Source: a virus (taxonomy: Duplodnaviria > Heunggongvirae > Uroviricota > Caudoviricetes). Taken from it: a stretch of DNA of 17,640 nt. Shown piece by piece: positions 2,460-17,640 of the stretch. Below the pieces are notes generated by a model, which was given only the letters and a program-made list of their open reading frames with translations, was not told the DNA's origin and ran no database searches. The DNA lies in the IMG/VR virus record IMGVR_UViG_3300028586_000764, one strand, 5' to 3'. How positions within the stretch are numbered: position 1 is the first letter of the stretch; every line of letters starts with the position of its first letter. The translations under genes were made by a program, and so were the position numbers.

Positions 2460-2502
2460 CAATGGGCGAAAGAAAACCCCTGCAATGCAGGGGTCTAAAG
2501 AA

Positions 2503-3168
2503 TTACTTCTGAGCGGGATAGGCCAGCTCTTTGTATTGCTCCGTCAGTTCCGGGTCTTTGCGCAGTTCAAGCTTCTTGCGCAGCTTTTCGCGGTACGCGT
2601 CAACCATGTTGACCGAATTCACGAGTTCATCGACGACTTCGCGGGGCACCTCTTTGGTTCCATCCAGCACGCCCTTGTTGAACTCGAAGCCCTCGGCCCA
2701 GCTAGGGTTGTTCGATACTTCGCGACCCAGCTGTCGAATCCGCTCGAATGCTTCGAGATGGATGCTCAGCAGCGTGACCACCGCTTCCACGTCGTCGTTC
2801 GACGGCCTGTAAGGGGATTCGCGTGGCGTCGCGTCCTTAACGCCACAAGCGACCAGGACCTCGGCCACCTGCTGCACCGTCGGGTCCGTGCCGTCGAGCT
2901 TCTTCAGCTCTTGAATGACATCCGTGAATCCGGCCAGCGCCGACCAGCTGTCGTCGTACGCTTTCAGGTACGGAACGTTTCGGTTGGCCAGCTCACGCCA
3001 CTTGATGCTGAACTCGCCAGAAGTGCCGCCATCTGGGCAATAATAGCCCAACATGATTTCGTCGTCCCCTGGTTTGCTGTCTTTCGACCGGTTGGCGTCG
3101 CCATACCAGGCTTGCGAAGAAATGATGAATCGGCGTTCGTCGCCTTCGTGCTTGTTTTTTTGCGTCAT
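2503..3168 (-). CDS. Hypothetical protein (221 aa), phage/plasmid type
   Basis: ATG start with AAGGA SD. The N-terminal block GGTSGEFSIKW...LKAYDDSWSAL...LDGTDPTVQQVAEVLVACGVKDATPRE resembles uncharacterised phage/plasmid proteins (recognition only). C-terminal half is helical and charged. Confidence 0.85.
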   Translation of the reverse strand: MTQKNKHEGDERRFIISSQAWYGDANRSKDSKPGDDEIMLGYYCPDGGTSGEFSIKWRELANRNVPYLKAYDDSWSALAGFTDVIQELKKLDGTDPTVQQVAEVLVACGVKDATPRESPYRPSNDDVEAVVTLLSIHLEAFERIRQLGREVSNNPSWAEGFEFNKGVLDGTKEVPREVVDELVNSVNMVDAYREKLRKKLELRKDPELTEQYKELAYPAQK

Positions 3169-3317
3169 CGCTTGTCCTTGTTGAAGTGAAATGCCCTTTC
3201 CAATATAGCGATGTTACCAATTCATGGGCCTGGTAGGAAAAAGGAACGCACTGGTTTGATTTAGAGGTGCTTCGCTACACTGACACATTAGGACATTTTT
3301 TCAGAAGGAGAACTCGC

Positions 3318-6016: not shown

Positions 6017-6076
6017 ACATAAAGCATCTAAACTAGGTGCCTACATGTTGCCATTCCCTAATTTTTGGGCTGGCAC

Positions 6077-7438
6077 ATGCTGTTTCCAACCATCGGATTC
6101 ACCGTATTTTTCTTCGTCGTGCTGGCGTTCTGGCCGCTCATGCGAACCACTGCCGCACGCACGCTGTTCCTCGCAGTAGCCAGCGGTACTTTCTGTGCGG
6201 TGGCCAGCCCTGCGCTGCTCCTCTATGTGGCGGCTTGGGCAGGTCTCTTGACCTTTGCGGGCAAGCGCCGTGAGCATGGCGCCCGGGTAGCGGTCTTGTC
6301 CTTAGCGCTTCTGCAGCTAGTGTTCTGGAAAGCGTTTGAGACCCTACCTCGAGGCATGCTTCCGGAAGCCGTCGCGCACTGGGTCATCCCGCTGGGGGTG
6401 TCGTTCTTTACCTTCCAGGGCCTGACCTACCTTTTCGCCCGAATGAAGGGCACCATCGACACGCCCTGGGACTTCACGCGGGTGTTCGCCTTCTGCTCCT
6501 TCTTCCCAACCATCTTCTCTGGGCCAATTCTGCGCGCGAAGACCTGGTCGGAGCACCTGGAGCAACCTGTCCCGCTCTATACCAAGTCGGTGGTGAGCCG
6601 CGCACTTGGCTGGGTGGTGCTGGGTCTTGCCTACAAGCTGGTGCTGGCCACGCTGTTGGGTGAGATTGTCGACGCCGCTTGGAGCGACCCGGGTGAGCAG
6701 CCGGCGGCAGCACTCTGGCTTGCGGCTTACGCCTACGCGTTCCAGCTATACGCGGACTTCGCTGGTTATTCGCTCCTTGCGCAAGCCGTTGCGTTGCTGC
6801 TCGGCTTCGCCATTCCCGCTAACTTCGACCAGCCGTACCTGGCCACAAGCGTGCAGGCGTTCTGGCGCCGTTGGCACATGAGCTTTTCAACCTGGCTGCG
6901 TGACCACCTTTACATCGACCTACTGGGTGGCAACAAGCACGGCCGGTCTCGTCAGATTATCAATGTGCTGGTGACGTTCTTCCTGTGCGGCGCGTGGCAC
7001 GGTCTTGCGCTCCACTACCTCATCTGGGGCGCCTGGCAGGCCGTAGCGGTCGCTTACTCGACGGTCAGCCGCATGGTGCTGGGTGAGCGTGCGCCGCCTG
7101 GGCGCGCCAAGCTGGTGCTGCACTGGCTCGTGGCTTTCCATGCCGCCGTTTTCGGCTGGGTATGGTTCCGCGCGCCGTCAGCAGAGGCAGCCGTAGACTA
7201 CTTCTCGGCCATGGCGACGACCGACTGGTCCTGGCGCCCAGAGTATCTGACCGGAATCGTCCTGGTTCTGGTCGCACTGGCTGTACACGTCGTAGAAAAA
7301 CGTGTTCTTAACGGGATGACCTGCTTTGCTGACAAGGCAGGTGCTATCAATCGCGCTGTTTTCTGGGCTCTGGCCATCGTGTTTGTGCTGATGCTGAGCC
7401 CTGCCGGCCTTCCTCCATTCATTTATTTCCGCTACTGA
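6077..7438 (+). CDS. patA: MBOAT family O-acyltransferase (PatA/AlgI-like)
   Basis: Start MLFPTIGF. Motifs PLGVSFFTFQGLTYL, FFPTIFSGPILR, YADFAGYS, NFDQPY, FWRRWHMSFSTWLRDHLY and GAWHG (catalytic His). C-terminal PPFIYFRY. Many TM segments. The symbol reflects family plus the adjacent PatB-like gene; the substrate is not proven. Confidence 0.92.
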   Translation: MLFPTIGFTVFFFVVLAFWPLMRTTAARTLFLAVASGTFCAVASPALLLYVAAWAGLLTFAGKRREHGARVAVLSLALLQLVFWKAFETLPRGMLPEAVAHWVIPLGVSFFTFQGLTYLFARMKGTIDTPWDFTRVFAFCSFFPTIFSGPILRAKTWSEHLEQPVPLYTKSVVSRALGWVVLGLAYKLVLATLLGEIVDAAWSDPGEQPAAALWLAAYAYAFQLYADFAGYSLLAQAVALLLGFAIPANFDQPYLATSVQAFWRRWHMSFSTWLRDHLYIDLLGGNKHGRSRQIINVLVTFFLCGAWHGLALHYLIWGAWQAVAVAYSTVSRMVLGERAPPGRAKLVLHWLVAFHAAVFGWVWFRAPSAEAAVDYFSAMATTDWSWRPEYLTGIVLVLVALAVHVVEKRVLNGMTCFADKAGAINRAVFWALAIVFVLMLSPAGLPPFIYFRY

Positions 7439-7440
7439 CC

Positions 7441-8577
7441 ATGTCGACTTTTCGCCCATTTGTCCACCTGACCCTCATTGGCGCGCTGGTCGCCTGGTAT
7501 CAGCTGCCTGTCATGGCTGAGCGCAGTCATGCGCTGACCATGCCTGGGCACGAGGCCCTGACCGATACTTTGGATACTGCCACAGCTACCATTGGCCAGC
7601 CTATGGTGGCGCTGCGGGCCTGGTCCGAACAGTCCAAGCTTAATCTGCAGGCGGGACTACTCGAGGCAGCTACGCCAATGCCCGGGGCCCTGGCCGCAGC
7701 CCCCGCAGCCGCGCCGGCGGTGGTCCGTGCGCCTGTTACGGCTCCTGTGAAGGCAACCGTGGACATGTCGGCACCTGTGCTTGCTGCAGCTGCTGGTTCG
7801 GCGGCCGCCGCCGCTAAGCTGACAGAAGCAGGTACTCCGCCGGCCAATACTGCCCCGGTAGGCGGGGCCGGCACTTCCAAGAGCGATAACGCCACCCCAG
7901 GGCCATCCGAAAAAGGAGTTGTAGCCGTCTTGGCCGGCGACTCTGTCATGGGCGAGATTGCGTTTGGCATGCAGCGGTGGGCGGCAAAGGCCCACTCCTG
8001 GACTATCGTTGACGCGCACAAGGTGTCGTCGGGACTGTCGAACACCGGCTACTACAACTGGCCGGTCACGTTCCATAACCTGCTCGAGGCTCACCATCCG
8101 AAGGTCGTGCTGATGATGGTAGGCGCGAATGACGCGCAAGACATCGTCGAAGGTAAGCGTCGCCAGCCTTTTGGGACCCCGGGTTGGCAGGCGACTTACA
8201 GTGACCGCGTCCATACGATACTCAAGGATGCGTCTGCCCACTGTACGACGGTCTACTGGACACTGATGCCGATTGTCCGCGAACCGGGCTTCGAGAAGAA
8301 AATGGCACTCGTACGCCAGGTTATCCGGGACGCAGCCAAGGAACATGGCGATACCGTACGAATCATTGACCCCAATGAGCGGTTCGTGGACAGTGCAGGC
8401 CGCTATATGGAATCGGCACGCATTAACGGTAAATCGAAAGCACTGCGCACGGACGACGGCATTCACCTGACCTGGGCCGGCGCGCAAGTGTTCGTCGACT
8501 CAGTGCTTGAAGATGCTGCTCGCCGTCCTGTAACTGCCAACGGCTGCCGGGTCGACGGGCCCGCGGCGCGCGAATAA
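7441..8577 (+). CDS. patB: SGNH-fold O-acetyltransferase (PatB/DUF459-like) with N-terminal anchor and Ala/Pro-rich linker
   Basis: Block I AGDSVMG, block II SSGLS, block III VGANDAQD, block V DDGIHLT. Starts 2 nt after the MBOAT stop. Spacing of the blocks matches Neisseria/Campylobacter-type PatB as I recall it. Confidence 0.86.
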   Translation: MSTFRPFVHLTLIGALVAWYQLPVMAERSHALTMPGHEALTDTLDTATATIGQPMVALRAWSEQSKLNLQAGLLEAATPMPGALAAAPAAAPAVVRAPVTAPVKATVDMSAPVLAAAAGSAAAAAKLTEAGTPPANTAPVGGAGTSKSDNATPGPSEKGVVAVLAGDSVMGEIAFGMQRWAAKAHSWTIVDAHKVSSGLSNTGYYNWPVTFHNLLEAHHPKVVLMMVGANDAQDIVEGKRRQPFGTPGWQATYSDRVHTILKDASAHCTTVYWTLMPIVREPGFEKKMALVRQVIRDAAKEHGDTVRIIDPNERFVDSAGRYMESARINGKSKALRTDDGIHLTWAGAQVFVDSVLEDAARRPVTANGCRVDGPAARE

Positions 8578-8622
8578 CCCCATTTTTTTTTACTTACCTG
8601 CCCGGTACGCCGGGCAAACAAT

Positions 8623-9054
8623 ATGACGACTACAACTGCAGCTGAACAAGTCTCCGATGCATCTTCCAAGATGCGCTTCCATACCAGGAAATGGGTGAAG
8701 CCGGAGGACCTCAATCCCAATGGAACGCTGTTTGGTGGGCGCCTCCTTTCCTGGATTGATGAAGAAGCGGCGATTTACGCAATTTGCCAGCTCGGGCACA
8801 CCCGCGTCGTGACGAAATACATGTCCGAAATCAACTTCATCAGTTCCGCACGCACTGGGGACGTGATTGAGCTCGGGATTGTCGCGACGGCCTTCGGCCG
8901 GACCTCGCTGACACTGCGGTGCGAAGTTCGTAACAAGATGACGCGAACAAGCATCCTGACGATTGACCGCATGGTCTTTGTCGGCCTGGATGAGGACGGT
9001 AACCCGCAGCCGCATGGCAAGACAGCAGTTTCGCCAGCAGGTGAAACTGCATGA
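8623..9054 (+). CDS. Hotdog-fold acyl-CoA thioesterase (YciA-like); alternative start ATG 8671
   Basis: MRFHTRKWVKPEDLNPNGTLFGGRLLSWIDEEAA ... INFISSARTGDVIE ... FGRTSLTLRCEV matches the acyl-CoA hydrolase signature. Confidence 0.92.
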   Translation: MTTTTAAEQVSDASSKMRFHTRKWVKPEDLNPNGTLFGGRLLSWIDEEAAIYAICQLGHTRVVTKYMSEINFISSARTGDVIELGIVATAFGRTSLTLRCEVRNKMTRTSILTIDRMVFVGLDEDGNPQPHGKTAVSPAGETA

Positions 9055-9126
9055 AAGGGGGTTCGTTCGCACCGACCATCGGAACGTAAAGTCTAAAAGC
9101 TTGCCGCGGTTGTTGCTGAGTAGAAC

Positions 9127-9861
9127 TTAGAACCCGTGGGTGCTGAGTGAAAGAAAATACCGCCGATTAAGTGCCACCACTTCGTGGGCCAGTTCTAGCA
9201 GTTCGGCGTCTGTCACCGTATTTTGCTTTTCGAATAACGTAACTGTAACAGGGACCTGCTTGACTAAGGAAGTGACGGAACGAACACGAACCAAGTATGG
9301 CTCTGCATTCTCTTCGGAGAACGATACGTCGGCACCGATTAGCCCTTGGTCATACTTAGCGGAGTACTGGATTGTTATATCCGCTAAGTCAGATATCGTG
9401 AAACCTAGGCCAGCTTTCGTAGCCAGTTTGTTGGCATTATTCATGTTCTCCCGAAATAGCCCGCTAGGGGGACGTGGCTGCCCTCGGAACATCGATGCCA
9501 CAGACTGAGTGACCGTTTTCGGCTTTTCATCAGCGGTTACCAGCACTTCCACCGAGCCCCACGCAGGGGCTCGAGCTATTGCGCCGTCTCGCAATGCGGC
9601 CAAGTCTGAACAGTGGTAAAACGACGCGATGGTGCGATTAGGCGTATGGCTAGTCGAAACTGCCTTGGCGGTGCTTATGCGAGCATTTACCGCCTTGTCG
9701 AAGTCATGTGTGTAACCTCGGAGGCAGTACCCCTCGGGAAGCAGGAGCTCTGGAATGTTCCCTGAAGCGGCTGCGGACAACGGCAGCGACATTCCGCCAG
9801 CTACTACAAGCCGAGCAGCTGCTGAAAGAATACGAGAGCAAAGTTTTTTAGACAGATGCAT
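9127..9861 (-). CDS. Putative exported hypothetical protein (244 aa)
   Basis: ATG at 9861 gives MHLSKKLCSRILSAAARLVVAGGMSLPLSAAA-SG, signal-peptide-like with an AxA cleavage site. In frame with track ORF 9127..9933. Lower GC. Confidence 0.7.
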   Translation of the reverse strand: MHLSKKLCSRILSAAARLVVAGGMSLPLSAAASGNIPELLLPEGYCLRGYTHDFDKAVNARISTAKAVSTSHTPNRTIASFYHCSDLAALRDGAIARAPAWGSVEVLVTADEKPKTVTQSVASMFRGQPRPPSGLFRENMNNANKLATKAGLGFTISDLADITIQYSAKYDQGLIGADVSFSEENAEPYLVRVRSVTSLVKQVPVTVTLFEKQNTVTDAELLELAHEVVALNRRYFLSLSTHGF

Positions 9862-10060
9862 AGTTGAAGGTTTTCGAGTGGGTGGAGTGCTCTCGCGCAA
9901 TGCTGGGACGCTATCTGCGTAACAACGCCCCAAAAAAGGGTGGTTCCAAGCGCAGACGCCAGGATAGCTACGTCAAAGTAAGAGCTTAGGACAAATCGAG
10001 CAGCAAATGGCGGCAGCCGCGTAGCCATCTCATATTTGAATTGTCGCCATAGGGTACTCC

Positions 10061-10531
10061 TCACGATTTGTTAGCTCCAACAAATGACAAGTAGTCAGAG
10101 AGCCCCTCGTCAAGACCCTCGCCAAAAGCGTCTGAGCCCTTGTCAATGAGCACGCCGGCAAGCATCCAAAAATTTAGATGCGGCCCAAACAGCGTCGCCA
10201 ATACAGCCTTCGATTTTTGCATCCGCTCAAGAGGCGGAAGCGTATGCCATAGGAGAGTGGCCCAGGTAAACGCATAACCCAGTTGTTTGTGAGCATTAGG
10301 GTTGGTACGCCAGTACTCCTCTGACTCACTATCCGAGGCTGCCAACTTTGCGCGTAGGTATCGTGTGGCAGCTCGGACTTTCTTGGACTCATCGGAATCA
10401 AGAACGTCAAAGAATCCTTTGAGGTCCCCGTCAAGCGCGGCCTTACCGGCTCGTAGCACTTTTCCGAACAGTTTTAGAATGACAAAAAGGAGGAAGAGTG
10501 CGAGAAAAATAAGTGAACCGACACCACGCAT
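10061..10531 (-). CDS. Hypothetical protein with N-terminal TM anchor
   Basis: ATG at 10531 (MRGVGSLIFLALFLLFVILKLFGK), in frame with track ORF 10061..10561. Confidence 0.7.
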   Translation of the reverse strand: MRGVGSLIFLALFLLFVILKLFGKVLRAGKAALDGDLKGFFDVLDSDESKKVRAATRYLRAKLAASDSESEEYWRTNPNAHKQLGYAFTWATLLWHTLPPLERMQKSKAVLATLFGPHLNFWMLAGVLIDKGSDAFGEGLDEGLSDYLSFVGANKS

Positions 10532-10584
10532 GTTGAACTTTCTAGCTAGACATAGTCCCACTTATAGCTAACTTTGGAAATTTC

Positions 10585-11358
10585 ATGCGACAACTCATCC
10601 TGTCATGTGTAACTGTGTTGCTGCTTAGTACCTCAGCAGGGACAGCGGCACAGGGTATCCCGGACGACCAGTACCAACAGCTTAAGCAAGCCTATCCCTC
10701 TTTCGCCAAGGCAGAAGCTCGACTCAACGAAGCCTACCGACTCGTGAGGGCTGAAGCAGACCCACTTGAGGCTGAGGGCCTACGTAGACAGCAGCGCGCT
10801 TGGATTAACGAGCGAGGGGCTGTGTATGAGTCAATCGGGGCCAACGACGAACTTGATGAATCGCAGAAAGTTGATGTTCTTACTACGATGGCTGCCGAGC
10901 GCGAGCATCAGATAAAGGTGCTCGAAGAAAAGTTCAACCGTGTCCCAGTAGAAGACGAACCAGAAGGTCTCGAAATCGACGATGCTCCCCTAGAAGCGGT
11001 AGCTGATTCGGTTGTACCCGATACATCCCCGCAAGCAGCCCCCCAGCCATCCCTAGAAGCTAACCACCAGCGCGAAGCAATCAATGAGATGCTAATGTGG
11101 TACTATGCAGGAGCTGTATTTCTTGTTGCCGTTTTATTGCTAGTTAAAGTTAGCAGAGCCATTCAAGCGGCAAAGCAGCGACGAATGCGGCAGGAACAGC
11201 TAACTGCGATTGCAGACGACATGGCGAATCAAATATGCGCCCACGCAGCTGGAGCGCTAACACGGTTGCGCGTAGAGCAAGAAGTGCTTGCTCGGCGCGA
11301 AGAACTTCAGGCCGCCGAGAGAGACTTAAAAATCGCATTAACTGAACGAAAGGGGTAA
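10585..11358 (+). CDS. Signal peptide + LprI (DUF1311)-like lysozyme-inhibitor domain + acidic/Pro linker + TM helix + coiled coil
   Basis: Signal MRQLILSCVTVLLLSTSAGTAA. The segment AEARLNEAYRLV...LRRQQRAWINER matches the LprI/DUF1311 pattern. TM MLMWYYAGAVFLVAVLLLVKV; C-terminal heptad-like helix. Confidence 0.72.
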   Translation: MRQLILSCVTVLLLSTSAGTAAQGIPDDQYQQLKQAYPSFAKAEARLNEAYRLVRAEADPLEAEGLRRQQRAWINERGAVYESIGANDELDESQKVDVLTTMAAEREHQIKVLEEKFNRVPVEDEPEGLEIDDAPLEAVADSVVPDTSPQAAPQPSLEANHQREAINEMLMWYYAGAVFLVAVLLLVKVSRAIQAAKQRRMRQEQLTAIADDMANQICAHAAGALTRLRVEQEVLARREELQAAERDLKIALTERKG

Positions 11359-11445
11359 CAACCTCTGTGAGACCATTATATCTAGATGACAACTACCTGA
11401 AGTAATGGTAAAATGTTCTCATATTGACGTGTCGAATTTAACGCC

Positions 11446-11513: not shown

Positions 11514-11606
11514 ATGAACGCTTTCCGCACAACGACTACGACCACCACCACTGGCCCGACCGGGCTGGCGGTGGTGAGTTTGGTCGTCGTGTCGACAAGT
11601 CGATAG
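11514..11606 (+). CDS. Threonine-rich leader peptide (30 aa) MNAFRTTTTTTTTGPTGLAVVSLVVVSTSR
   Basis: ATG at 11514; eight consecutive Thr codons ACA ACG ACT ACG ACC ACC ACC ACT at 11529-11552; TAG at 11604-11606; lies 114 nt upstream of a ThrRS gene. Below the ORF-track size cutoff. Confidence 0.9.
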   Translation: MNAFRTTTTTTTTGPTGLAVVSLVVVSTSR

Positions 11607-11680
11607 CGCAGCCCAGTAGCTCACCACACCTCTCGCCGCCCGGTCCAGGTCTCGTACCTGCACCGGGCGGTTTGCATTTC
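11529..11680 (+). promoter_or_regulatory. Ribosome-mediated transcription attenuator (1:2, 2:3, 3:4 helices)
   Basis: 1:2 = ACGACCA (11538-44)/TGGTCGT (11581-87) and CACCAC (11546-51)/GTGGTG (11571-76). 2:3 = GTGGTGAG (11571-78)/CTCACCAC (11620-27), GGCG (11567-70)/CGCC (11634-37) and GGGC (11562-65)/GCCC (11638-41). 3:4 = terminator 11636-11670. Confidence 0.8.
11636..11679 (+). terminator. Attenuator terminator hairpin
   Basis: CCGCCCGGT-c-CAGGT-ctcgt-ACCTG-c-ACCGGGCGG (14 bp with one C-C mismatch) followed by TTTGCATTT, an interrupted U-tract. Confidence 0.72.
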
Positions 11681-11720
11681 AAATCCTGAATTACCACAAC
11701 ACACTATCTGGAGCCTTACC

Positions 11721-12908
11721 ATGAACGAAGAACGTTACCTCGATGTCGCCGCCCGCATGCAGCTTATCCACCTGGGCCAGTCCGCCGGTGTAGTCTACTG
11801 GCAGCCTGCCGGCCTGAACTTGTACGAGCGACTGCGCAGCTATATCCGTCGCATTCACCGCCAGCATGGCTACCTCGAGGTCAAGAGCCCAAGCCTCGTC
11901 GGGCTGGAAGTGTTCGAGCGCTCGGGCCACCTCGGCAAATACCGGGAAAACATGTTCTTGGCCAATCAGGTCAACGACCCTGCGCGCCATCCGGACGTTC
12001 AGGCTTACGGCCTGCGCCCGATGAGCTGCCCAAACCATATTGAGCTGTACGGCTGCGCCCGCCGCAGCTATCGCGAACTGCCAATGCAGCTCTTCGAGTT
12101 TGGCGACGTTTTCCGCAATGAGCCGTCTGGCTCCCTCCAGGTGCTGTTCCGCCAGCGCCAATTCACCCAGGATGACAGCCACGTCTTCGCCGGCGAAAGC
12201 CAGGTGGCGGAAGTGGCCGCACGTTACCTGTCCATGGCGCAGCAGGTATTCCACGACCTCGGCTTCGAGTCCGTTGAGTATGCGCTCTCGCTGCGCCCGG
12301 CCGAGCGATTTGGCGAAGATGTTCTGTGGGACCGTGCTGAAGAGTCGCTGCGCTCGGCGTTTCGCGGCGCCGGCCTGGCCTGGAAAGAGCAGCCCGGTGA
12401 AGGGGCGTTCTATGGCCCCAAAATTGAACTGGGTGTGCGCGACAAGCTGGGCCGTCTCTGGCAGATGGGCACCCTGCAGCTGGACTACGTGCTGCCAGAG
12501 CGATTCGACCTGTCGTACCAGGCGGCTAGCGGCGCCTACGAGCGCCCAGTCATCCTGCACCACGCAGTGCTGGGCTCGCTCGAGCGCATGATTGGCATTT
12601 TGCTGGAAGTGCATGGCGAAGCGCTGCCGGCGTTCCTGCACCCCTATCCGGCAGTTGTGCTCGCCGTGTCCGAAAAGAGCGCAGAATACGCCAAGCGCGT
12701 GCATTCCGAGCTACTTAAGGCAGAGCCGGACGCCCTGCTGGATGACTCGAACGACACCCTCGGTGCCAAGTTGCGCCTGTGGCGTTCGCGCGGGGTGGCC
12801 GCTATCTATGTCATCGGCGAGAAAGAGGCTGAGCGCTTTGCCCAGGAAGGCCAGGTGTGGGCGATGCTCTCGGAAGGGCGTAGCCAAAAGCCAGTGCAAG
12901 TTGCCTAA
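11721..12908 (+). CDS. thrS: Threonyl-tRNA synthetase, catalytic + anticodon-binding domains only (395 aa)
   Basis: SGHLGKYRENMF, RPMSCPNH (Zn Cys), FRNEPSGSL..LFRQRQFTQDDSHVF (motif 2, Zn His), GEGAFYGPKIE, WQMGTLQLD, ILHHAVLGSLERMIGIL (Zn His, motif 3). C-terminal anticodon domain ...SNDTLGAKLR...VIGEKE. GGAG SD 7 nt upstream. Confidence 0.96.
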   Translation: MNEERYLDVAARMQLIHLGQSAGVVYWQPAGLNLYERLRSYIRRIHRQHGYLEVKSPSLVGLEVFERSGHLGKYRENMFLANQVNDPARHPDVQAYGLRPMSCPNHIELYGCARRSYRELPMQLFEFGDVFRNEPSGSLQVLFRQRQFTQDDSHVFAGESQVAEVAARYLSMAQQVFHDLGFESVEYALSLRPAERFGEDVLWDRAEESLRSAFRGAGLAWKEQPGEGAFYGPKIELGVRDKLGRLWQMGTLQLDYVLPERFDLSYQAASGAYERPVILHHAVLGSLERMIGILLEVHGEALPAFLHPYPAVVLAVSEKSAEYAKRVHSELLKAEPDALLDDSNDTLGAKLRLWRSRGVAAIYVIGEKEAERFAQEGQVWAMLSEGRSQKPVQVA

Positions 12909-12969
12909 CGGCGCTGGCGGGTAAACGTGATTGGCTAGACAAGACAACCCTATAACCGGAGTGTCTTCC

Positions 12970-13560
12970 ATGCGCTACATTTTGCCCGCCCTCTTTTGTG
13001 CTGCTGCCCTGAGCCTGGCCACAGCTGCATCAGCGGCGGATAACCCGTCGACCGGCACAGAACAAGTCAAGCCCGTCGTGAGCCCGACCGCCGCCCTGAT
13101 GGCGGATTTGGCCGAGGAGGTTGTCGAGTCTCTTGGAGACGTTCAAGGCAGTGGCGTGGCCGTGGCCGCTGTTACGACTGACACGCGCCTGGAGCGCGCT
13201 TTGCAAGAAGCCGTTGTGACCGCATTGTTCGAGAAGGGCATTCCGGTGCTGGAGGCGCCTACTGCGGGAGCGCCTACCATTCACCTTGTGGCATTTGCAA
13301 CTCCTGTGGCGGCCAGCAGCGAAGACCATTCCAATATTCTGTCCAAAGGCTTCTCAGTAGTGCGCAATGTCCTGGTCGCCGACCCCCGTGTAAGCTTGGT
13401 CACCAAGCCATTTGTGCGAGATGGAAAGAAAGCGGCTGACGCCGCACTCATCGTGACAGTAAGCGTGGCCAAGCAAGGCCGATTCGTCGCCCGCAAAACC
13501 AATGCGTACACGCTGCCGGGTTCGGAGCCGTTCGCGCAGCTGGCACTGACTTCACCGTAA
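12970..13560 (+). CDS. Putative exported protein (196 aa)
   Basis: ATG at 12970 with GGAG SD. Signal peptide MRYILPALFCAAALSLATAASA-AD. The alpha/beta core (VAVAAV...LERALQEAVVTALFEKGIPVL) is only loosely reminiscent of FlgO/CsgG-type domains. Confidence 0.8.
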   Translation: MRYILPALFCAAALSLATAASAADNPSTGTEQVKPVVSPTAALMADLAEEVVESLGDVQGSGVAVAAVTTDTRLERALQEAVVTALFEKGIPVLEAPTAGAPTIHLVAFATPVAASSEDHSNILSKGFSVVRNVLVADPRVSLVTKPFVRDGKKAADAALIVTVSVAKQGRFVARKTNAYTLPGSEPFAQLALTSP

Positions 13561-13579
13561 CCTAAGCACAACCGGAAAG

Positions 13580-13605
13580 AAGCCGCGGCGGTCCGCGGCT
13601 TTTTT
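13580..13605 (+). terminator. Rho-independent terminator
   Basis: AAGCCGCGG-cggt-CCGCGGCTT followed by TTTT. Confidence 0.88.
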
Positions 13606-13681
13606 GTTGCCAAAGAAGGTTATGATTGGCGCGTGTTGGGTTGCTATACGCTGCAGACCATTACTTTATTAGGAGTTTATT

Positions 13682-14110
13682 ATGAGCGACAAATTCAAGA
13701 AGCCTGCTATGCCGTTGTCCAAGCATTTGATGACCCTCGGCGTGATGCTGATAATCATCGACCTCGTCATCGCGCCTACGGCCGAGTTCGAGTTCATGGA
13801 CTACGACTGGCCTGTAGTGTGGGTAATCAAGATGATTGCCTTCGGCATGATTGTGTTTGGTTTCGTGTTCGGTGCGGTCGCTGCAATCAGCGCACGCAAA
13901 GCTCACATCGCAAAAATGAACGCTGACGCCGCTGCTGACGCTGCCGCTAACGCTGCTGCTGTCTCGGAATCCCAATCCGAGCCAAGCATCGCTCAGCCGG
14001 CTGCACAAGCTGAAAGTTCTGCACTCTTCGCTGTCCCCGAACCCCGGGTGATGGTGGTTAATGAAGTTGCCAAGCCTACCGTCGAGTTTCCCACCTCGGC
14101 CAAAGCTTAA
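13682..14110 (+). CDS. Two-TM membrane protein with Ala/Pro-rich cytoplasmic tail (142 aa)
   Basis: AGGAG SD. TMs LMTLGVMLIIIDLVIA and VIKMIAFGMIVFGFVFGAVAAI; low-complexity tail. Confidence 0.85.
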   Translation: MSDKFKKPAMPLSKHLMTLGVMLIIIDLVIAPTAEFEFMDYDWPVVWVIKMIAFGMIVFGFVFGAVAAISARKAHIAKMNADAAADAAANAAAVSESQSEPSIAQPAAQAESSALFAVPEPRVMVVNEVAKPTVEFPTSAKA

Positions 14111-14167
14111 GCAGTTTCAAGCAGCATTCCTCTCAGGAATCAAGTTTAGTTTTTCTTCCTGATTCTG

Positions 14168-14195
14168 ACGCACCTCTTTGAGGTGCGTTTTTCTT
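14168..14195 (+). terminator. Rho-independent terminator between convergent genes
   Basis: ACGCACCTC-ttt-GAGGTGCGT followed by TTTTCTTT. Confidence 0.85.
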
Positions 14196-14324
14196 TGGTG
14201 CTTCGCTGTGAGATGGCCCTGCGCTACCGGCCACATCGCTCAAAGCCAAAGAAAAACCGCAGGCGGCGTCGGGAGACGCGCGTCTGCGGTGAATGATGCA
14301 TGAACCTTCTGCAGTGAACCGTGG

Positions 14325-15665
14325 TTACGGCAGTTCCAGCTCGATGTAGTCGCCGAAAGGTGGCTTGATGCCGCGGCGGGTGCCTTCGGGTACCGCCCAG
14401 AGAACTGGGTAGTCCGGGGCGACTGTCGGGAAAGTGCCTTCCAGGTCGGTCAGGTAGATGAAGCAAGTGCAGTCGATGCCCTCGTCTTCCACCCACTTGA
14501 ACGGTGGTCGGAAATCCGTACCGCCGCCGCCCTTCGCTTTTGCCTCGAACTCTTCTTCGTCACCGGAGAAGATGGTTTGCACGCGTTGAATCGTGGCGTC
14601 CACGTCCAGCACATACACTGCTTCTGGCTTGATGGTCTCGATGATGTCGAGCAGCTCGCCGTTCATTAGTTGCAAGTACTTGCCCCCAATGGAACCGCTA
14701 GTGTCGCGCACGATGACGATAGCTGGAACAGTGCTGCCGACCATGCCGGGGAAGAAAAATCCCGTGTGCATGTAGCGCATATTTGGCCGCGACCAGGTGT
14801 AGTCAGGCGAAGCCAGCGAGGTCTCGAAGAAGTGCCGAAGCTCCTCTTTCCAGTTCGTTGGCGACTTCAGGGTTTCACCTACCAGACGCTGCATATCCCC
14901 TGCAAGATTTCCTTGCATTCGGACCGCAGTGTCCATGGCCATTTTCCAGTCGGCTTCGTGATTCTCGTCTTCTGGCGCTGGTCGAACTTCACCAGGGATG
15001 GGCGCCGGTTTTGATTCTGGCTTGGAGCCAGGACCACCTTTACCGTCTCCGTCCGCATCGCCATCGCCTTCGCCACCACCCGGACTTTCACCCGGAGCGG
15101 GAGTTGAAGGACCAGGCGAGTCGCCGTCGTCTTTCGAGTCATCGCTACCACTGCCATCCTCGTCCCCGTCGCCTGGAGCAGGCGATGGCGTATCCTTGCT
15201 GCCACCTTTAGAGGGCGCAGGCTTGCTTCCCGAAGGAGGCGCAGCCTGCAGCTTCTCGTAGATGGCTTCTGCGGACAGACCCTCGTACTGCTGGTCATGC
15301 GGAACACCTGCTGGCAACCGCATACCAGAATTGACCAGCAGCGGGTAAATGGCAAAGGTACAAGCTTTCTGCCACTCACCAGACTCACGGGAGTCCTGCC
15401 GCCACGGGTGACCCGCAGCGATGTGCGTGACCGACTTGCCGATGATACCTCGCAGCTCTACGTCTGCCAGACTGTCGACATAGCCCGGGTTGAACCCGAA
15501 CGACACCGAATCAGTCCACACCGTCGAGCAGGAAGGGTCTTCCACGAGTTTCAGCCGCAAGGCCAACATCCCGTAGAAAGGCTCATCCATCACGAGGTTG
15601 GCTCGGGCACGGACCATACGCTCGAGGCGCTGGGCCGCAGCCGCGGCGACCTTATCAGGCTGCAC
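14325..15665 (-). CDS. DUF2201-type metallopeptidase-like domain + Gly/Pro/Asp linker + VWA domain protein
   Basis: N-terminal FYGMLAL...TVWTD...FNPGYV...HIAAGH..R...W.KAC pattern of DUF2201 proteins. VWA MIDAS RDTSGS, GGGGTDF, YLTDLEG. The GTG start overlaps the upstream stop by 11 nt. Confidence 0.88.
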   Translation of the reverse strand: MQPDKVAAAAAQRLERMVRARANLVMDEPFYGMLALRLKLVEDPSCSTVWTDSVSFGFNPGYVDSLADVELRGIIGKSVTHIAAGHPWRQDSRESGEWQKACTFAIYPLLVNSGMRLPAGVPHDQQYEGLSAEAIYEKLQAAPPSGSKPAPSKGGSKDTPSPAPGDGDEDGSGSDDSKDDGDSPGPSTPAPGESPGGGEGDGDADGDGKGGPGSKPESKPAPIPGEVRPAPEDENHEADWKMAMDTAVRMQGNLAGDMQRLVGETLKSPTNWKEELRHFFETSLASPDYTWSRPNMRYMHTGFFFPGMVGSTVPAIVIVRDTSGSIGGKYLQLMNGELLDIIETIKPEAVYVLDVDATIQRVQTIFSGDEEEFEAKAKGGGGTDFRPPFKWVEDEGIDCTCFIYLTDLEGTFPTVAPDYPVLWAVPEGTRRGIKPPFGDYIELELP

Positions 15666-16557
15666 GCTTGAACTCCGCAGCAGCCGGGTTCATGCCGGCG
15701 CCAGCCGGATTCATGAACGCCTGCATCACATTGAAGACAGTCTGGGCTTCTGCGGCCACGCGTTGACGCGTATCCGGGTTGAGCTTGACTGCTTCAGCCG
15801 AGATGCCGGCCAGGCTCTTCTGCAGACGCTCGGACAGCATGTCCAGGCGCTCGTCGTTCATGATGTTCATGCGCGGCAGCAGAGCTGCCAGGTCACGCAC
15901 ACCTGCGATGGTTTCTTCCTTGACGTAGGCCTTCTCGTCACCCAGCTTGCTGGTCAGCTTCGCCAGACGCTCGTAGAGGTCTTCAAAGTTGCGGCGATTT
16001 GCGCGAGCATACGTCTCGTGCATGTCCGCCTCCAGCTTGCTGCGCATGGCATCGGCTTCGGCCGGGTCCAGTCCCAGTTCCAGCAGTCCGGTGGATGCCG
16101 GCATCGGCTGAGCCTTGATTTCGAACGCGTAGCGCGATTTCAGGGCGGCCTGGTTAGGATAGTCGGCAGGGTCGTACAGCTTACCCAGCACAGAGGCTGC
16201 TTCGCCTTTGATGGTGTCGTACTGGGCCAGGAAGTCCAGCACGCCGTTCTCGAAGTCCGACTTGTAGCGGCGCATCTGCGTCATGTACGCATCGAAGTTC
16301 GCGGTCAGCAGGATACGCGGGCCGTCGTGCATCCAGGCATGCGTGTTCTCGTAGTGGAACGTGCGCGCTGCGCGGATGACGCTGAACAGGCGGTCCATGA
16401 CATCGGTCTTGGGCAGTAGGCTCTTGCGCAGACGGCACAGACGTTTGTCTTTGACGTCGTTGGCATCGGCCACGTCCTGCGAAACACGCTTGTCCTGACG
16501 GTTTGCGTCCCAGTTGCTGATGTTCAGCGTGACGAGGATTGCGTTTTTGATTTCCAT
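15655..16557 (-). CDS. DUF3150-like protein (300 aa)
   Basis: AAGGA SD. Pattern LVTLNIS.W...K.LL.........R..HY..T..W...G.RIL...FL..Y......LG.LY...DYP....L...Y.F typical of the family that accompanies MoxR/VWA pairs in mobile elements (recognition only). Confidence 0.8.
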   Translation of the reverse strand: MEIKNAILVTLNISNWDANRQDKRVSQDVADANDVKDKRLCRLRKSLLPKTDVMDRLFSVIRAARTFHYENTHAWMHDGPRILLTANFDAYMTQMRRYKSDFENGVLDFLAQYDTIKGEAASVLGKLYDPADYPNQAALKSRYAFEIKAQPMPASTGLLELGLDPAEADAMRSKLEADMHETYARANRRNFEDLYERLAKLTSKLGDEKAYVKEETIAGVRDLAALLPRMNIMNDERLDMLSERLQKSLAGISAEAVKLNPDTRQRVAAEAQTVFNVMQAFMNPAGAGMNPAAAEFKRAA

Positions 16558-16614
16558 AGTAGTGTCCTTGATTTTTTTTTGTCGAAAAGTGATGCTCTTG
16601 CTGACCAGCGATGC

Positions 16615-17640
16615 TTAGCCGAACAGCGATGCCAGCTCGCCAGTCGTTGCCTGGATGTACGCAGATGTCTGCGTCAGCTCCGGCTTGCGTTTCTGGCAGT
16701 CGCGAATCAGACGCGCAGCCATTTCGCCGCTACCGTCCTTATTCAGGCGTTCTGCATAGCGCACAACTTGCCCGAAGTTTTCCGGGTTGGCGTAGTACGC
16801 CAGCGCACTTGTCAGCATGTACAGCACCGAAACGTCCTTGCTGAGCTTGGATTTTTCCGGGTTGAGCAGAATCGAGTCCGGCGAAGGCAGCGAGCGCCAG
16901 TTCTTCAGGAACTCGACCACTTGCGTAGCAGCACCCACACCGATTGCACCAGCCAGGCCGTCGCGTTCGATGTCCGTGCCGAGTTTCGCCAGGCCCGCGT
17001 TCATCAAACGGCCCGCGTTCGCCCAGGTACGAGGACTTGGGCTGTTCACGATTTCCGTGGTCGGAGCGTGCATCAGCAGCGAGGTCGGGTTCATGCGCAG
17101 GTAAGCAATCAACTCACCAGGCATGGCTGCCCCCAGCGCCCAGTCCACCCATGCGTCCAGCGAAGGCTCGACGTTGATGATGGTCACGAAGCGGCTTTTC
17201 ACAGGCTCCAGGATGCCGTTGACGCCGGCGCGGTCAGCCTTACGGTTGGTCGCAGCGACGAACGTTACGCAGTCCGGCAGCACGTGCTCACCGATACGGC
17301 GAGCCAGCAGCAACTGCATGTAAGCCGCCTGAACAGCCGGAGACGCTTGCCCCAGGTCGTCCAGGAACCACAGCAGTGGTCGAGTTGCCTTCAGCGCCCT
17401 GGCCAGGTGGCCATAAGGCAGGAACTTCGCGAATTCACCAGAGGCGTCCGCGTAAGGGAAACCTTTTGGGTCCGTTGGGTCTTCGACGACCGGATGCGAG
17501 ATTTGCAGGTCCATGCCCTCGAAAAGGGAGACTTGTTCAACCAGGTCCGATTTGCCGACACCCGGCGGACCCACCAGAATTACTGGCAGTTTGTTGCTGA
17601 CGCAAAGCCGGGTAAGCGCGATTGCTTGGATGATATCCAT
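16615..17640 (-). CDS. MoxR-type AAA+ ATPase (start may lie beyond the window edge)
   Basis: Walker A GPPGVGKS, Walker B LLWFLDD, sensor-1 VAATN, Arg finger PVKSRF, SPRTW motif. The ATG occupies the last three bases of the window. Confidence 0.93.
   Translation of the reverse strand: MDIIQAIALTRLCVSNKLPVILVGPPGVGKSDLVEQVSLFEGMDLQISHPVVEDPTDPKGFPYADASGEFAKFLPYGHLARALKATRPLLWFLDDLGQASPAVQAAYMQLLLARRIGEHVLPDCVTFVAATNRKADRAGVNGILEPVKSRFVTIINVEPSLDAWVDWALGAAMPGELIAYLRMNPTSLLMHAPTTEIVNSPSPRTWANAGRLMNAGLAKLGTDIERDGLAGAIGVGAATQVVEFLKNWRSLPSPDSILLNPEKSKLSKDVSVLYMLTSALAYYANPENFGQVVRYAERLNKDGSGEMAARLIRDCQKRKPELTQTSAYIQATTGELASLFG

Follow-up and report, generated by a model that had tools for sequence, protein, structure and literature searches.

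A short, nearly threonine-free threonyl-tRNA synthetase behind a predicted threonine attenuator on a giant plasmid-like element

The virus record IMGVR_UViG_3300028586_000764 (Duplodnaviria; Heunggongvirae; Uroviricota; Caudoviricetes) is a stretch of 17,640 nucleotides (nt), which as a whole is called the window here. Its plus strand encodes a short threonyl-tRNA synthetase (ThrRS) of 395 amino acids (aa), preceded by a leader with a run of threonine codons and followed by the genes of a conserved backbone. An earlier reading of this DNA, made from the sequence alone, had described a minimal ThrRS deprived of the TGS and N2 domains, the latter being the editing domain. The analysis presented here concerns the gene, the family to which it belongs, the elements that carry it and the role that such an enzyme might play.

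The short ThrRS gene and its leader

The open reading frame (ORF) of the short ThrRS is the longest reading from the nearest upstream stop and cannot be extended upstream; its Shine-Dalgarno sequence and the other features of the locus are listed in Table 1. By direct alignment the protein spans residues 247-602 of Escherichia coli ThrRS at 37% identity, and among solved structures ThrRS enzymes match it best, with a span on E. coli residues 247-603. A Pfam scan of the 395-aa protein found no domain beyond tRNA-synt_2b and HGTP_anticodon (PF03129, residues 311-372, E 3e-10), TGS (N1) and N2 being unmatched, and in the NCBIfam model thrS (TIGR00418) profile positions 189-536 of 565 are matched while positions 1-188 are empty. 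When the N-terminal halves of 41 ThrRS were compared with the window by tblastn, the best E was 0.06 and nothing fell near the gene, so that no decayed TGS or N2 region is present in the window. The anticodon-binding domain lacks the C-terminal helix 621-642 of the E. coli enzyme. The zinc ligands C103, H154 and H280 correspond to E. coli C334, H385 and H511, and the arginines of motif 2 (R132) and motif 3 (R289) correspond to R363 and R520. The start at the catalytic domain, the missing TGS and N2 domains and the presence of zinc ligands, motifs and anticodon domain, all claimed by the sequence-only reading, are therefore confirmed.

The DNA upstream of the gene had been taken for an attenuator rather than for decayed coding sequence, and this view is sustained by the threonine leader, the terminator and the antiterminator found there, together with the lack of any N-terminal remnant. 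Eight consecutive threonine codons lie at 11529-11552, and the four synonymous codons ACA, ACG, ACT and ACC all occur in the run. The minimum-free-energy fold of 11514-11700 (-78.6 kcal/mol, z = -5.9) holds a 1:2 hairpin over the threonine codons and the terminator hairpin; when the threonine segment is removed, the fold of 11560-11662 (-49.4 kcal/mol, z = -4.0) sequesters the 5' arm of the terminator. The predicted terminator and antiterminator are thus mutually exclusive, which is the classical arrangement of an attenuator.

Similar leaders, with runs of three to eight threonines (T3-T8) and a terminator, precede the homologues in loci L001, L003, L086, L088, L090 (Variovorax), L091, L098, L100 and L101. 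With the window this makes ten distinct loci, whose gene GC content ranges from 31 to 63%, AT-rich elements included. The leaders cannot be aligned between distant loci, which suggests that their function and not their sequence is conserved. For the more distant short lineages, 259 nt upstream of the gene were available in L102 and 89 nt in L103; no threonine-run leader occurs within the 259 nt of L102. A search of Rfam gave no family at the gathering threshold and only chance-level matches at E up to 10, so the assignment of the leader to Thr_leader (RF00506) was rejected.

Table 1. Position of the short ThrRS gene, of its regulatory features and of neighbouring genes in the window.
Feature	Position	Strand	Remarks
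Promoter-like site ATGACA, 17 nt, TG-TAAAAT	11386..11414	+	10/12 consensus match only; ~100 nt upstream of leader ORF
Putative leader peptide ORF	11514..11606	+	30 codons, MNAFRTTTTTTTTGPTGLAVVSLVVVSTSR; threonine-run ORF ahead of thrS
Putative antiterminator	11560..11644	+	Segment 2 (CCGGGCUGGCGGUGGUGAG) pairing with segment 3 (CUCACCAC...CGCCGCCCGG); predicted fold
Putative intrinsic terminator	11635..11681	+	GC-rich hairpin, then UUUGCAUUUC; predicted fold
Shine-Dalgarno GGAG	11710-11713	+	7 nt ahead of ATG; read from sequence
Short ThrRS gene	11721..12908	+	395 aa; three Thr only: T149, T251, T346
Class II catalytic core, tRNA-synt_2b (PF00587)	12000..12614	+	Residues 94-298; Pfam, E 1e-38
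Zinc-ligand codons	12027-12029; 12180-12182; 12558-12560	+	C103; H154; H280; alignment to E. coli ThrRS
Codons at zinc-ligand substitutions	12018-12029, 12180-12185, 12558-12563	+	Adjoin C103, H154, H280
Anticodon-binding domain	12633..12905	+	Residues ~305-395; Pfam match, family alignment and model
234-aa protein of no assigned function	2485-3189	+	Three Thr (1.3%)
MBOAT and DUF459/SGNH genes	6065-8577		Membrane O-acyltransferase (457 aa); 2 nt later, esterase-like protein (378 aa)
Lower-GC block (~50-54%)	8590-11358		Between SGNH/DUF459 gene and thrS leader
Hotdog-fold 4HBT thioesterase	8623-9054	+	Within the lower-GC block
LprI-like exported protein	10585-11358	+	Within the lower-GC block
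Exported ~197-199-aa protein	12961-13560	+	Signal peptide; 52 nt past thrS stop
DUF2201, 300-aa protein, AAA_5 genes	14325-17640	-	Operon-like; metallopeptidase-like/VWA (446 aa), 300-aa protein, MoxR-like ATPase

A family of short synthetases with few threonines

A homologue search in 5.8 billion proteins, with full-length ThrRS lying within the length range searched, returned at least 120 homologous clusters of 56-98% identity, nearly all of 360-425 aa, and full-length ThrRS scored far below them. In the family alignment most members begin at E. coli position ~232-241, that is at the start of the catalytic domain. Seven members read 447-488 aa, and their extensions are low-complexity or miscalled starts with no TGS or N2 sequence; a frameshifted N-terminal domain, which the sequence-only reading had considered for close homologues, is likewise not found in the window. 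Codon comparison argues that the gene is under purifying selection, the ratio of nonsynonymous to synonymous substitution rates (dN/dS) being 0.029 against the 94%-identical homologue of L098 and 0.094 against that of L001; for more distant pairs dN/dS is about 0.2 (up to 0.21), with dS saturated.

These data bear on the possibility that the gene is a decayed or assembly-truncated remnant of thrS, to which a protein 245 residues shorter than bacterial ThrRS might point. The equal shortness of nearly all of the more than 120 clusters, the dN/dS values down to 0.03, the absence of any N-terminal trace in the window DNA and the possession of its own Shine-Dalgarno sequence, leader and terminator refute this explanation, to which we attach practically no probability, and the short form is native, as had been proposed.

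The phylogenetic comparison suggested in the earlier reading, made here with 41 family members and 27 housekeeping cores, separates the short family from the housekeeping ThrRS by a single branch with an SH-aLRT support of 100. A FastTree phylogeny was also built from the 150 best representatives at 50% identity, taken from a library of 1.84 billion proteins. In this tree 16 short proteins (10 of them threonine-free and 4 threonine-low) form one clade with no long member and a local support of 97; two more threonine-free short lineages fall outside this clade, one of which, P0197, sits among full-length ThrRS. The trees are quick-mode ones and are not decisive on independent origins of the threonine-free short lineages, and the housekeeping comparison set is biased to Proteobacteria, with the addition of long representatives from the same library.

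A second property of the family is its threonine content. The short ThrRS of the window has 3 threonines in 395 residues (0.76%), against 5.4% in the remaining window proteins; in the family the median content is 0.26%, and threonine is wholly lacking from 33 of 121 members, whereas housekeeping ThrRS cores have a median of 3.5% (range 2.0-4.75, n=52). Among the 150 best representatives, cores with at most 0.25% threonine were 8 of the 32 short ones, none of the 94 full-length ones and none of the 19 of intermediate length. Threonines of the E. coli enzyme are replaced at defined positions: T307 by Ser in 121 of 121 members, T380 by Cys in 114 and T482 by Val in 68, and further T548 by Ser and T526 by Leu. 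The family is purged of threonine. The sequence-only reading was right on the native short form and on the attenuator, and it missed both this near-absence of threonine and the large conserved family. The only other markedly threonine-poor ORF of the window encodes the 234-aa protein listed in Table 1.

The catalytic core is intact. All catalytic and zinc-binding residues that were checked are kept in the query and in all 121 family members. These include motif 1 Y51, V54 and P57, the arginines of motifs 2 and 3, the zinc triad, and D152, Y231, K234 and Q253, equivalent to the threonine-binding D383, Y462, K465 and Q484 of E. coli; the query also keeps the E. coli positions G463, Q479 and L489, and its first-shell substrate residues are the same as in E. 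coli. An AlphaFold2 (AF2) model built from 104 family sequences has a mean pLDDT (predicted local distance difference test) of 94.1 and a complete beta-alpha core in the anticodon-binding domain; it superposes on E. coli deltaN-ThrRS (1EVK) and relatives with a template modelling (TM) score of ~0.91 and a root-mean-square deviation of about 2.2 A, and on yeast MST1 with a TM score of 0.89.

Around this unchanged first shell, seven differences are near-invariant between the family and 114 housekeeping ThrRS: F265Y, W304F, K330R, N333S, I386V, R512H and F521M (E. coli numbering). N333S, I386V and R512H each directly adjoin one zinc ligand, and F521M adjoins the arginine R520 of motif 3.

Carriers and neighbouring genes

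The closest homologues are found on metagenomic contigs of 0.5-1.46 Mb, which carry mostly genes of unassigned function and, besides these, SSB, RNase H, ligase-like, Ter and phage-like ones; the carrier is a giant plasmid-like extrachromosomal element. The window is syntenic with L098 and L001, in the order SSB, further genes, MBOAT, SGNH/DUF459, leader, thrS, the exported protein of ~197-199 aa and the DUF2201/AAA operon, and thrS thus belongs stably to the backbone. Among the carriers seen, Variovorax sp. GT1P44 (WP_435520429.1) alone is cultured. Searches of PLSDB and INPHARED gave no DNA match to the gene and only protein matches below 45% identity, and the Variovorax megaplasmids in PLSDB thus appear not to carry the short family. 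A pattern scan of species genomes returned housekeeping thrS only, at 40-45% identity; among 401 genomes sampled from one Burkholderiales family the short family was not found at E 1e-110 or better, which is not proof of its absence; and in IMG/VR a single locus was found, which holds an ordinary long ThrRS.

Several neighbours are kept in the related loci. The MBOAT-DUF459 pair stands beside thrS in L001 and L098, and no polysaccharide synthase is found in its vicinity; the DUF2201/AAA_5 operon is retained in L098, and the exported protein downstream of thrS occurs in both. No terminator was detected between the thrS stop and the gene of this exported protein, which is rich in threonine (~8%) and for this reason is unlikely to share an emergency logic with the synthetase. 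The lower-GC block between the SGNH/DUF459 gene and the leader is absent from L098 and L001 and is probably an insertion; besides the thioesterase and the LprI-like protein it holds minus-strand ORFs of no assigned function.

The size of the carriers and their wealth of genes of unassigned function also fit an enzyme that would mainly serve tRNA(Thr) genes of the element, or its bursts of expression, as has been proposed for the tRNA/synthetase sets of huge phages. In the huge phage LR756504.1 (L097, 2411-3830) a more distant short ThrRS of at most 386 aa, with one threonine and 42% identity, lies within a tRNA array between tRNA-Thr(GGU), with its end 1 nt upstream of the first ATG of the ORF, and tRNA-Thr(UGU), and in L086, an AT-rich giant element, an ArgRS gene (13415-15094, 559 aa) follows the short ThrRS by 2 kb. 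No tRNA gene was found, however, in the window or in six related loci of 10-21 kb; the attenuator would report general Thr-tRNA charging, with all four threonine codons in its leader, and a constitutive autonomy would need no threonine-free enzyme. We consider such translational autonomy improbable as the main function. As to the L086 ArgRS itself, no arginine-run leader is evident in the 60 nt inspected, and a purge of arginine was judged unconvincing (1.07% Arg, against 1.25-3.0% in its AT-rich neighbours and 4.2% in the short ThrRS).

Proposed role, fidelity and known counterparts

We regard it as reasonably probable that the gene encodes a native, functional auxiliary ThrRS of the giant plasmid-like element, induced through its attenuator; activity, induction, mischarging and editing in trans by the host are inferred. 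The attenuator would normally end transcription. With Thr-tRNA(Thr) in short supply, ribosomes would stall on the eight threonine codons of the leader, the antiterminator would form and the gene would be transcribed; the enzyme, being nearly free of threonine, could still be translated during the shortage and would recharge tRNA(Thr), and as charging recovers termination would resume. The attenuator would in this way confine expression to emergencies. The proposed restriction of induction to scarcity of Thr-tRNA, together with the plasmid-like location, points to an auxiliary copy working beside the host ThrRS.

Some points weigh against this role. The TIGR00418 score of 363 bits lies below the equivalog cut-off of 383.65, and as a consequence one homologue is called only 'aminoacyl--tRNA ligase-related protein' at NCBI. 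The family-invariant substitutions mean that substrate selectivity, inhibitor or zinc behaviour may differ from those of the E. coli enzyme, and the changes beside the zinc ligands may also alter the behaviour towards serine. Moreover, an extra ThrRS would be of no help if free threonine itself were absent, which makes simple threonine starvation a doubtful trigger.

The low score and the cautious annotation would suit a synthetase-like enzyme with a non-translational role as well, such as an amino acid:carrier-protein ligase or a regulator, and synthetase paralogues that are truncated and serve new functions have been described (PMC9437257). Against this, the anticodon-binding domain is kept with a complete fold in the model, every threonine-, ATP- and zinc-binding residue checked is invariant, control by stalling at threonine codons makes sense for tRNA charging, and the neighbourhood holds neither carrier-protein nor biosynthetic genes, so that this explanation appears very improbable.

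Concerning the trigger of the proposed auxiliary enzyme, a block of the host ThrRS would be relieved by an extra synthetase and would explain the need for a threonine-free enzyme, and for these reasons a scenario of rescue or resistance is favoured. Its most specific form, the main rival to the role proposed above, is an enzyme that restarts charging because it is insensitive to an agent, such as borrelidin, obafluorin or a ThrRS-targeting toxin, that nearly blocks the host ThrRS. A threonine-free protein is needed only if Thr-tRNA falls near zero, which a block of ThrRS would bring about; the attenuator would sense charging and not free threonine; and invariant second-shell changes stand beside all three zinc ligands. 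The positions that we take to form the borrelidin/obafluorin pocket speak against insensitivity: H309, Y313, P335, H337, Y462, Q484 and L489 are retained by 120-121 of the 121 members, while T307, presumably a residue of the borrelidin pocket, is the serine found throughout the family. Nor does any biosynthetic cluster lie nearby, the neighbours being SSB, MBOAT/SGNH, LprI-like, DUF2201/AAA and unassigned genes. Resistant auxiliary synthetases such as ObaO (10.1101/704981) and TrpRS1 (in the list of PMC9437257) are known; yet the determinant of ObaO, G463S (PMC11252418), occurs neither here nor in 120 of the 121 members, L489 is kept, and in E. coli overexpression of a sensitive ThrRS did not raise the minimum inhibitory concentration of obafluorin (10.1101/704981), so that a sensitive backup would not protect. 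We consider an enzyme of this kind rather unlikely. ObaO-like changes occur singly in the family, P0076 having Ser at the position of G463 and P0040 having Met at that of L489.

More broadly, and only tentatively, the enzyme may be a 'cold-start' synthetase, shaped so that it can be translated in the complete absence of Thr-tRNA(Thr): its threonine codons would have been purged, the N-terminal half of 240 residues dropped and its expression gated by stalling at threonine codons, in order to restart translation for giant plasmids and huge phages after failure or blockade of the host ThrRS. In this possible version the host enzyme could be disabled by an inhibitor of natural origin, by a toxin, or through damage by metals or oxidation, the changes adjacent to the zinc site would alter inhibitor, zinc or serine behaviour, and the loss of editing would be a matter of design and not a defect.

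Whichever the trigger of the proposed auxiliary ThrRS, its closest structural counterpart is an engineered one. DeltaN-ThrRS of E. coli, the construct behind most ThrRS crystal structures, comprises residues 242-642 (PDB 1EVK, 1EVL, 1FYF, 1KOG) and has the same domain boundaries, fold, zinc ligands and first shell. The short ThrRS, by contrast, is a natural, conserved protein with no more than 37% identity to it, from which threonine has been purged and helix 621-642 is missing; it also has the seven family-specific substitutions, three of them beside zinc ligands, and a predicted threonine leader attenuator. Among natural enzymes, yeast MST1 shares the minimal make-up, and we know of no threonine purge or attenuator in it. 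MST1 (PDB 3UGQ, 4EO4, 4YYE) has no post-transfer editing and mischarges serine despite its pre-transfer editing (PMC4267643). It is the sole organellar ThrRS, whereas the short ThrRS is a proposed inducible extra copy, which belongs to a clade of its own, all short, and is 28-29% identical to MST1 by structural alignment versus 34-37% to bacterial ThrRS. Crenarchaeal ThrRS-cat (Aeropyrum ThrRS-1, PDB 3A31; a weaker structural match, TM 0.80) likewise has no cis-editing domain in the catalytic protein, but there a dedicated ThrRS-ed gene supplies the editing, and none is found among the 30 ORFs of the window.

Other systems resemble the short ThrRS in their deployment. The leader-peptide-attenuated synthetase genes of E. 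coli (pheM-pheST) and Streptomyces coelicolor (TrpRS1, an auxiliary enzyme induced when charging drops) have, as here, a short ORF rich in cognate codons, a terminator and an antiterminator before the synthetase gene. The present cassette differs in its amino acid, which is threonine, in an enzyme that is truncated and nearly free of its own cognate, and in its location on giant mobile elements. TrpRS1 is listed among the duplicated synthetases (PMC9437257). Anabaena has a second ThrRS, T2, that is turned on upon failure of the housekeeping enzyme and makes Ser-tRNA(Thr), which T1 edits in trans; an N-terminal deletion of T2 has no editing activity and mischarges serine (PMC4787780). Unlike the short ThrRS, T2 has the full length and a crippled N2, is encoded on the chromosome and is induced by low zinc via Zur instead of by a leader peptide (PMC4787780). 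ObaO, too, is an extra ThrRS copy beside a housekeeping enzyme, but it has its full length of 637 aa, lies in the oba cluster and is resistant because Ser replaces the glycine equivalent to E. coli G463 (10.1101/704981; PMC11252418). A reading of the ObaO type was dropped, as the short ThrRS has Gly there (G232), like 120 of 121 members, and no cluster is nearby.

Post-transfer editing by ThrRS is held, to our knowledge, to be nearly indispensable in free-living cells, and the natural editing-less exceptions known to us are organellar, parasitic or paired with a separate editing protein. The statement of the earlier reading that no trans-editing factor is encoded in the window agrees with a scan of its 30 ORFs, none of which belongs to an editing family (tRNA_SAD, YbaK, DTD, tRNA-Thr_ED); the 636-kb genome of the huge phage LR756504.1 is devoid of tRNA_SAD domains. 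That reading had further inferred that the enzyme is error-prone, relies on host editing in trans, or has a tightened pre-transfer selectivity, alternatives to which different weights can be given. The first is the default expectation. The E. coli deltaN truncation reportedly charges tRNA(Thr) and also makes Ser-tRNA(Thr), and from the unchanged first shell, the deltaN-like fold and the precedents of deltaN, MST1 and T2 a working enzyme is to be expected that is probably error-prone on its own and should, in the absence of an editing domain, release some Ser-tRNA(Thr) when alone. The second alternative is plausible: the gene belongs to an accessory element, so the host should have a full-length ThrRS of its own, and by analogy with Anabaena T1, whose trans-editing makes up for the editing defect of T2 (PMC4787780), that enzyme would be the likely trans-editor. 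For the third there is one weak lead, namely the substitutions N333S, I386V and R512H beside the three zinc ligands, which may hint at an altered selectivity.

Minimal ThrRS are known from yeast mitochondria and Crenarchaeota, and a stress-induced second ThrRS poor in editing is known from cyanobacteria. In a 2022 review of duplicated synthetases only T2 and ThrRS-L are listed for ThrRS (PMC9437257), and in the literature searched there was no description of the combination seen here, a bacterial-type ThrRS family that is truncated by nature at its N-terminus, is nearly or wholly free of threonine, carried by giant mobile elements and placed behind a threonine attenuator. A large conserved family on such elements has dropped editing, removed its own cognate amino acid from the enzyme and, as its leaders suggest, is wired to a sensor of Thr-tRNA charging. 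For enzymologists it offers a natural deltaN-ThrRS with defined second-shell changes round the zinc site, and Variovorax sp. GT1P44 is a cultured carrier usable for experiments. The family would thus be a testable case of how translation can be restarted once one charged tRNA is exhausted, of when a cell or an element tolerates the replacement of threonine by serine, and of whether trans-editing by a housekeeping synthetase extends to a foreign one.

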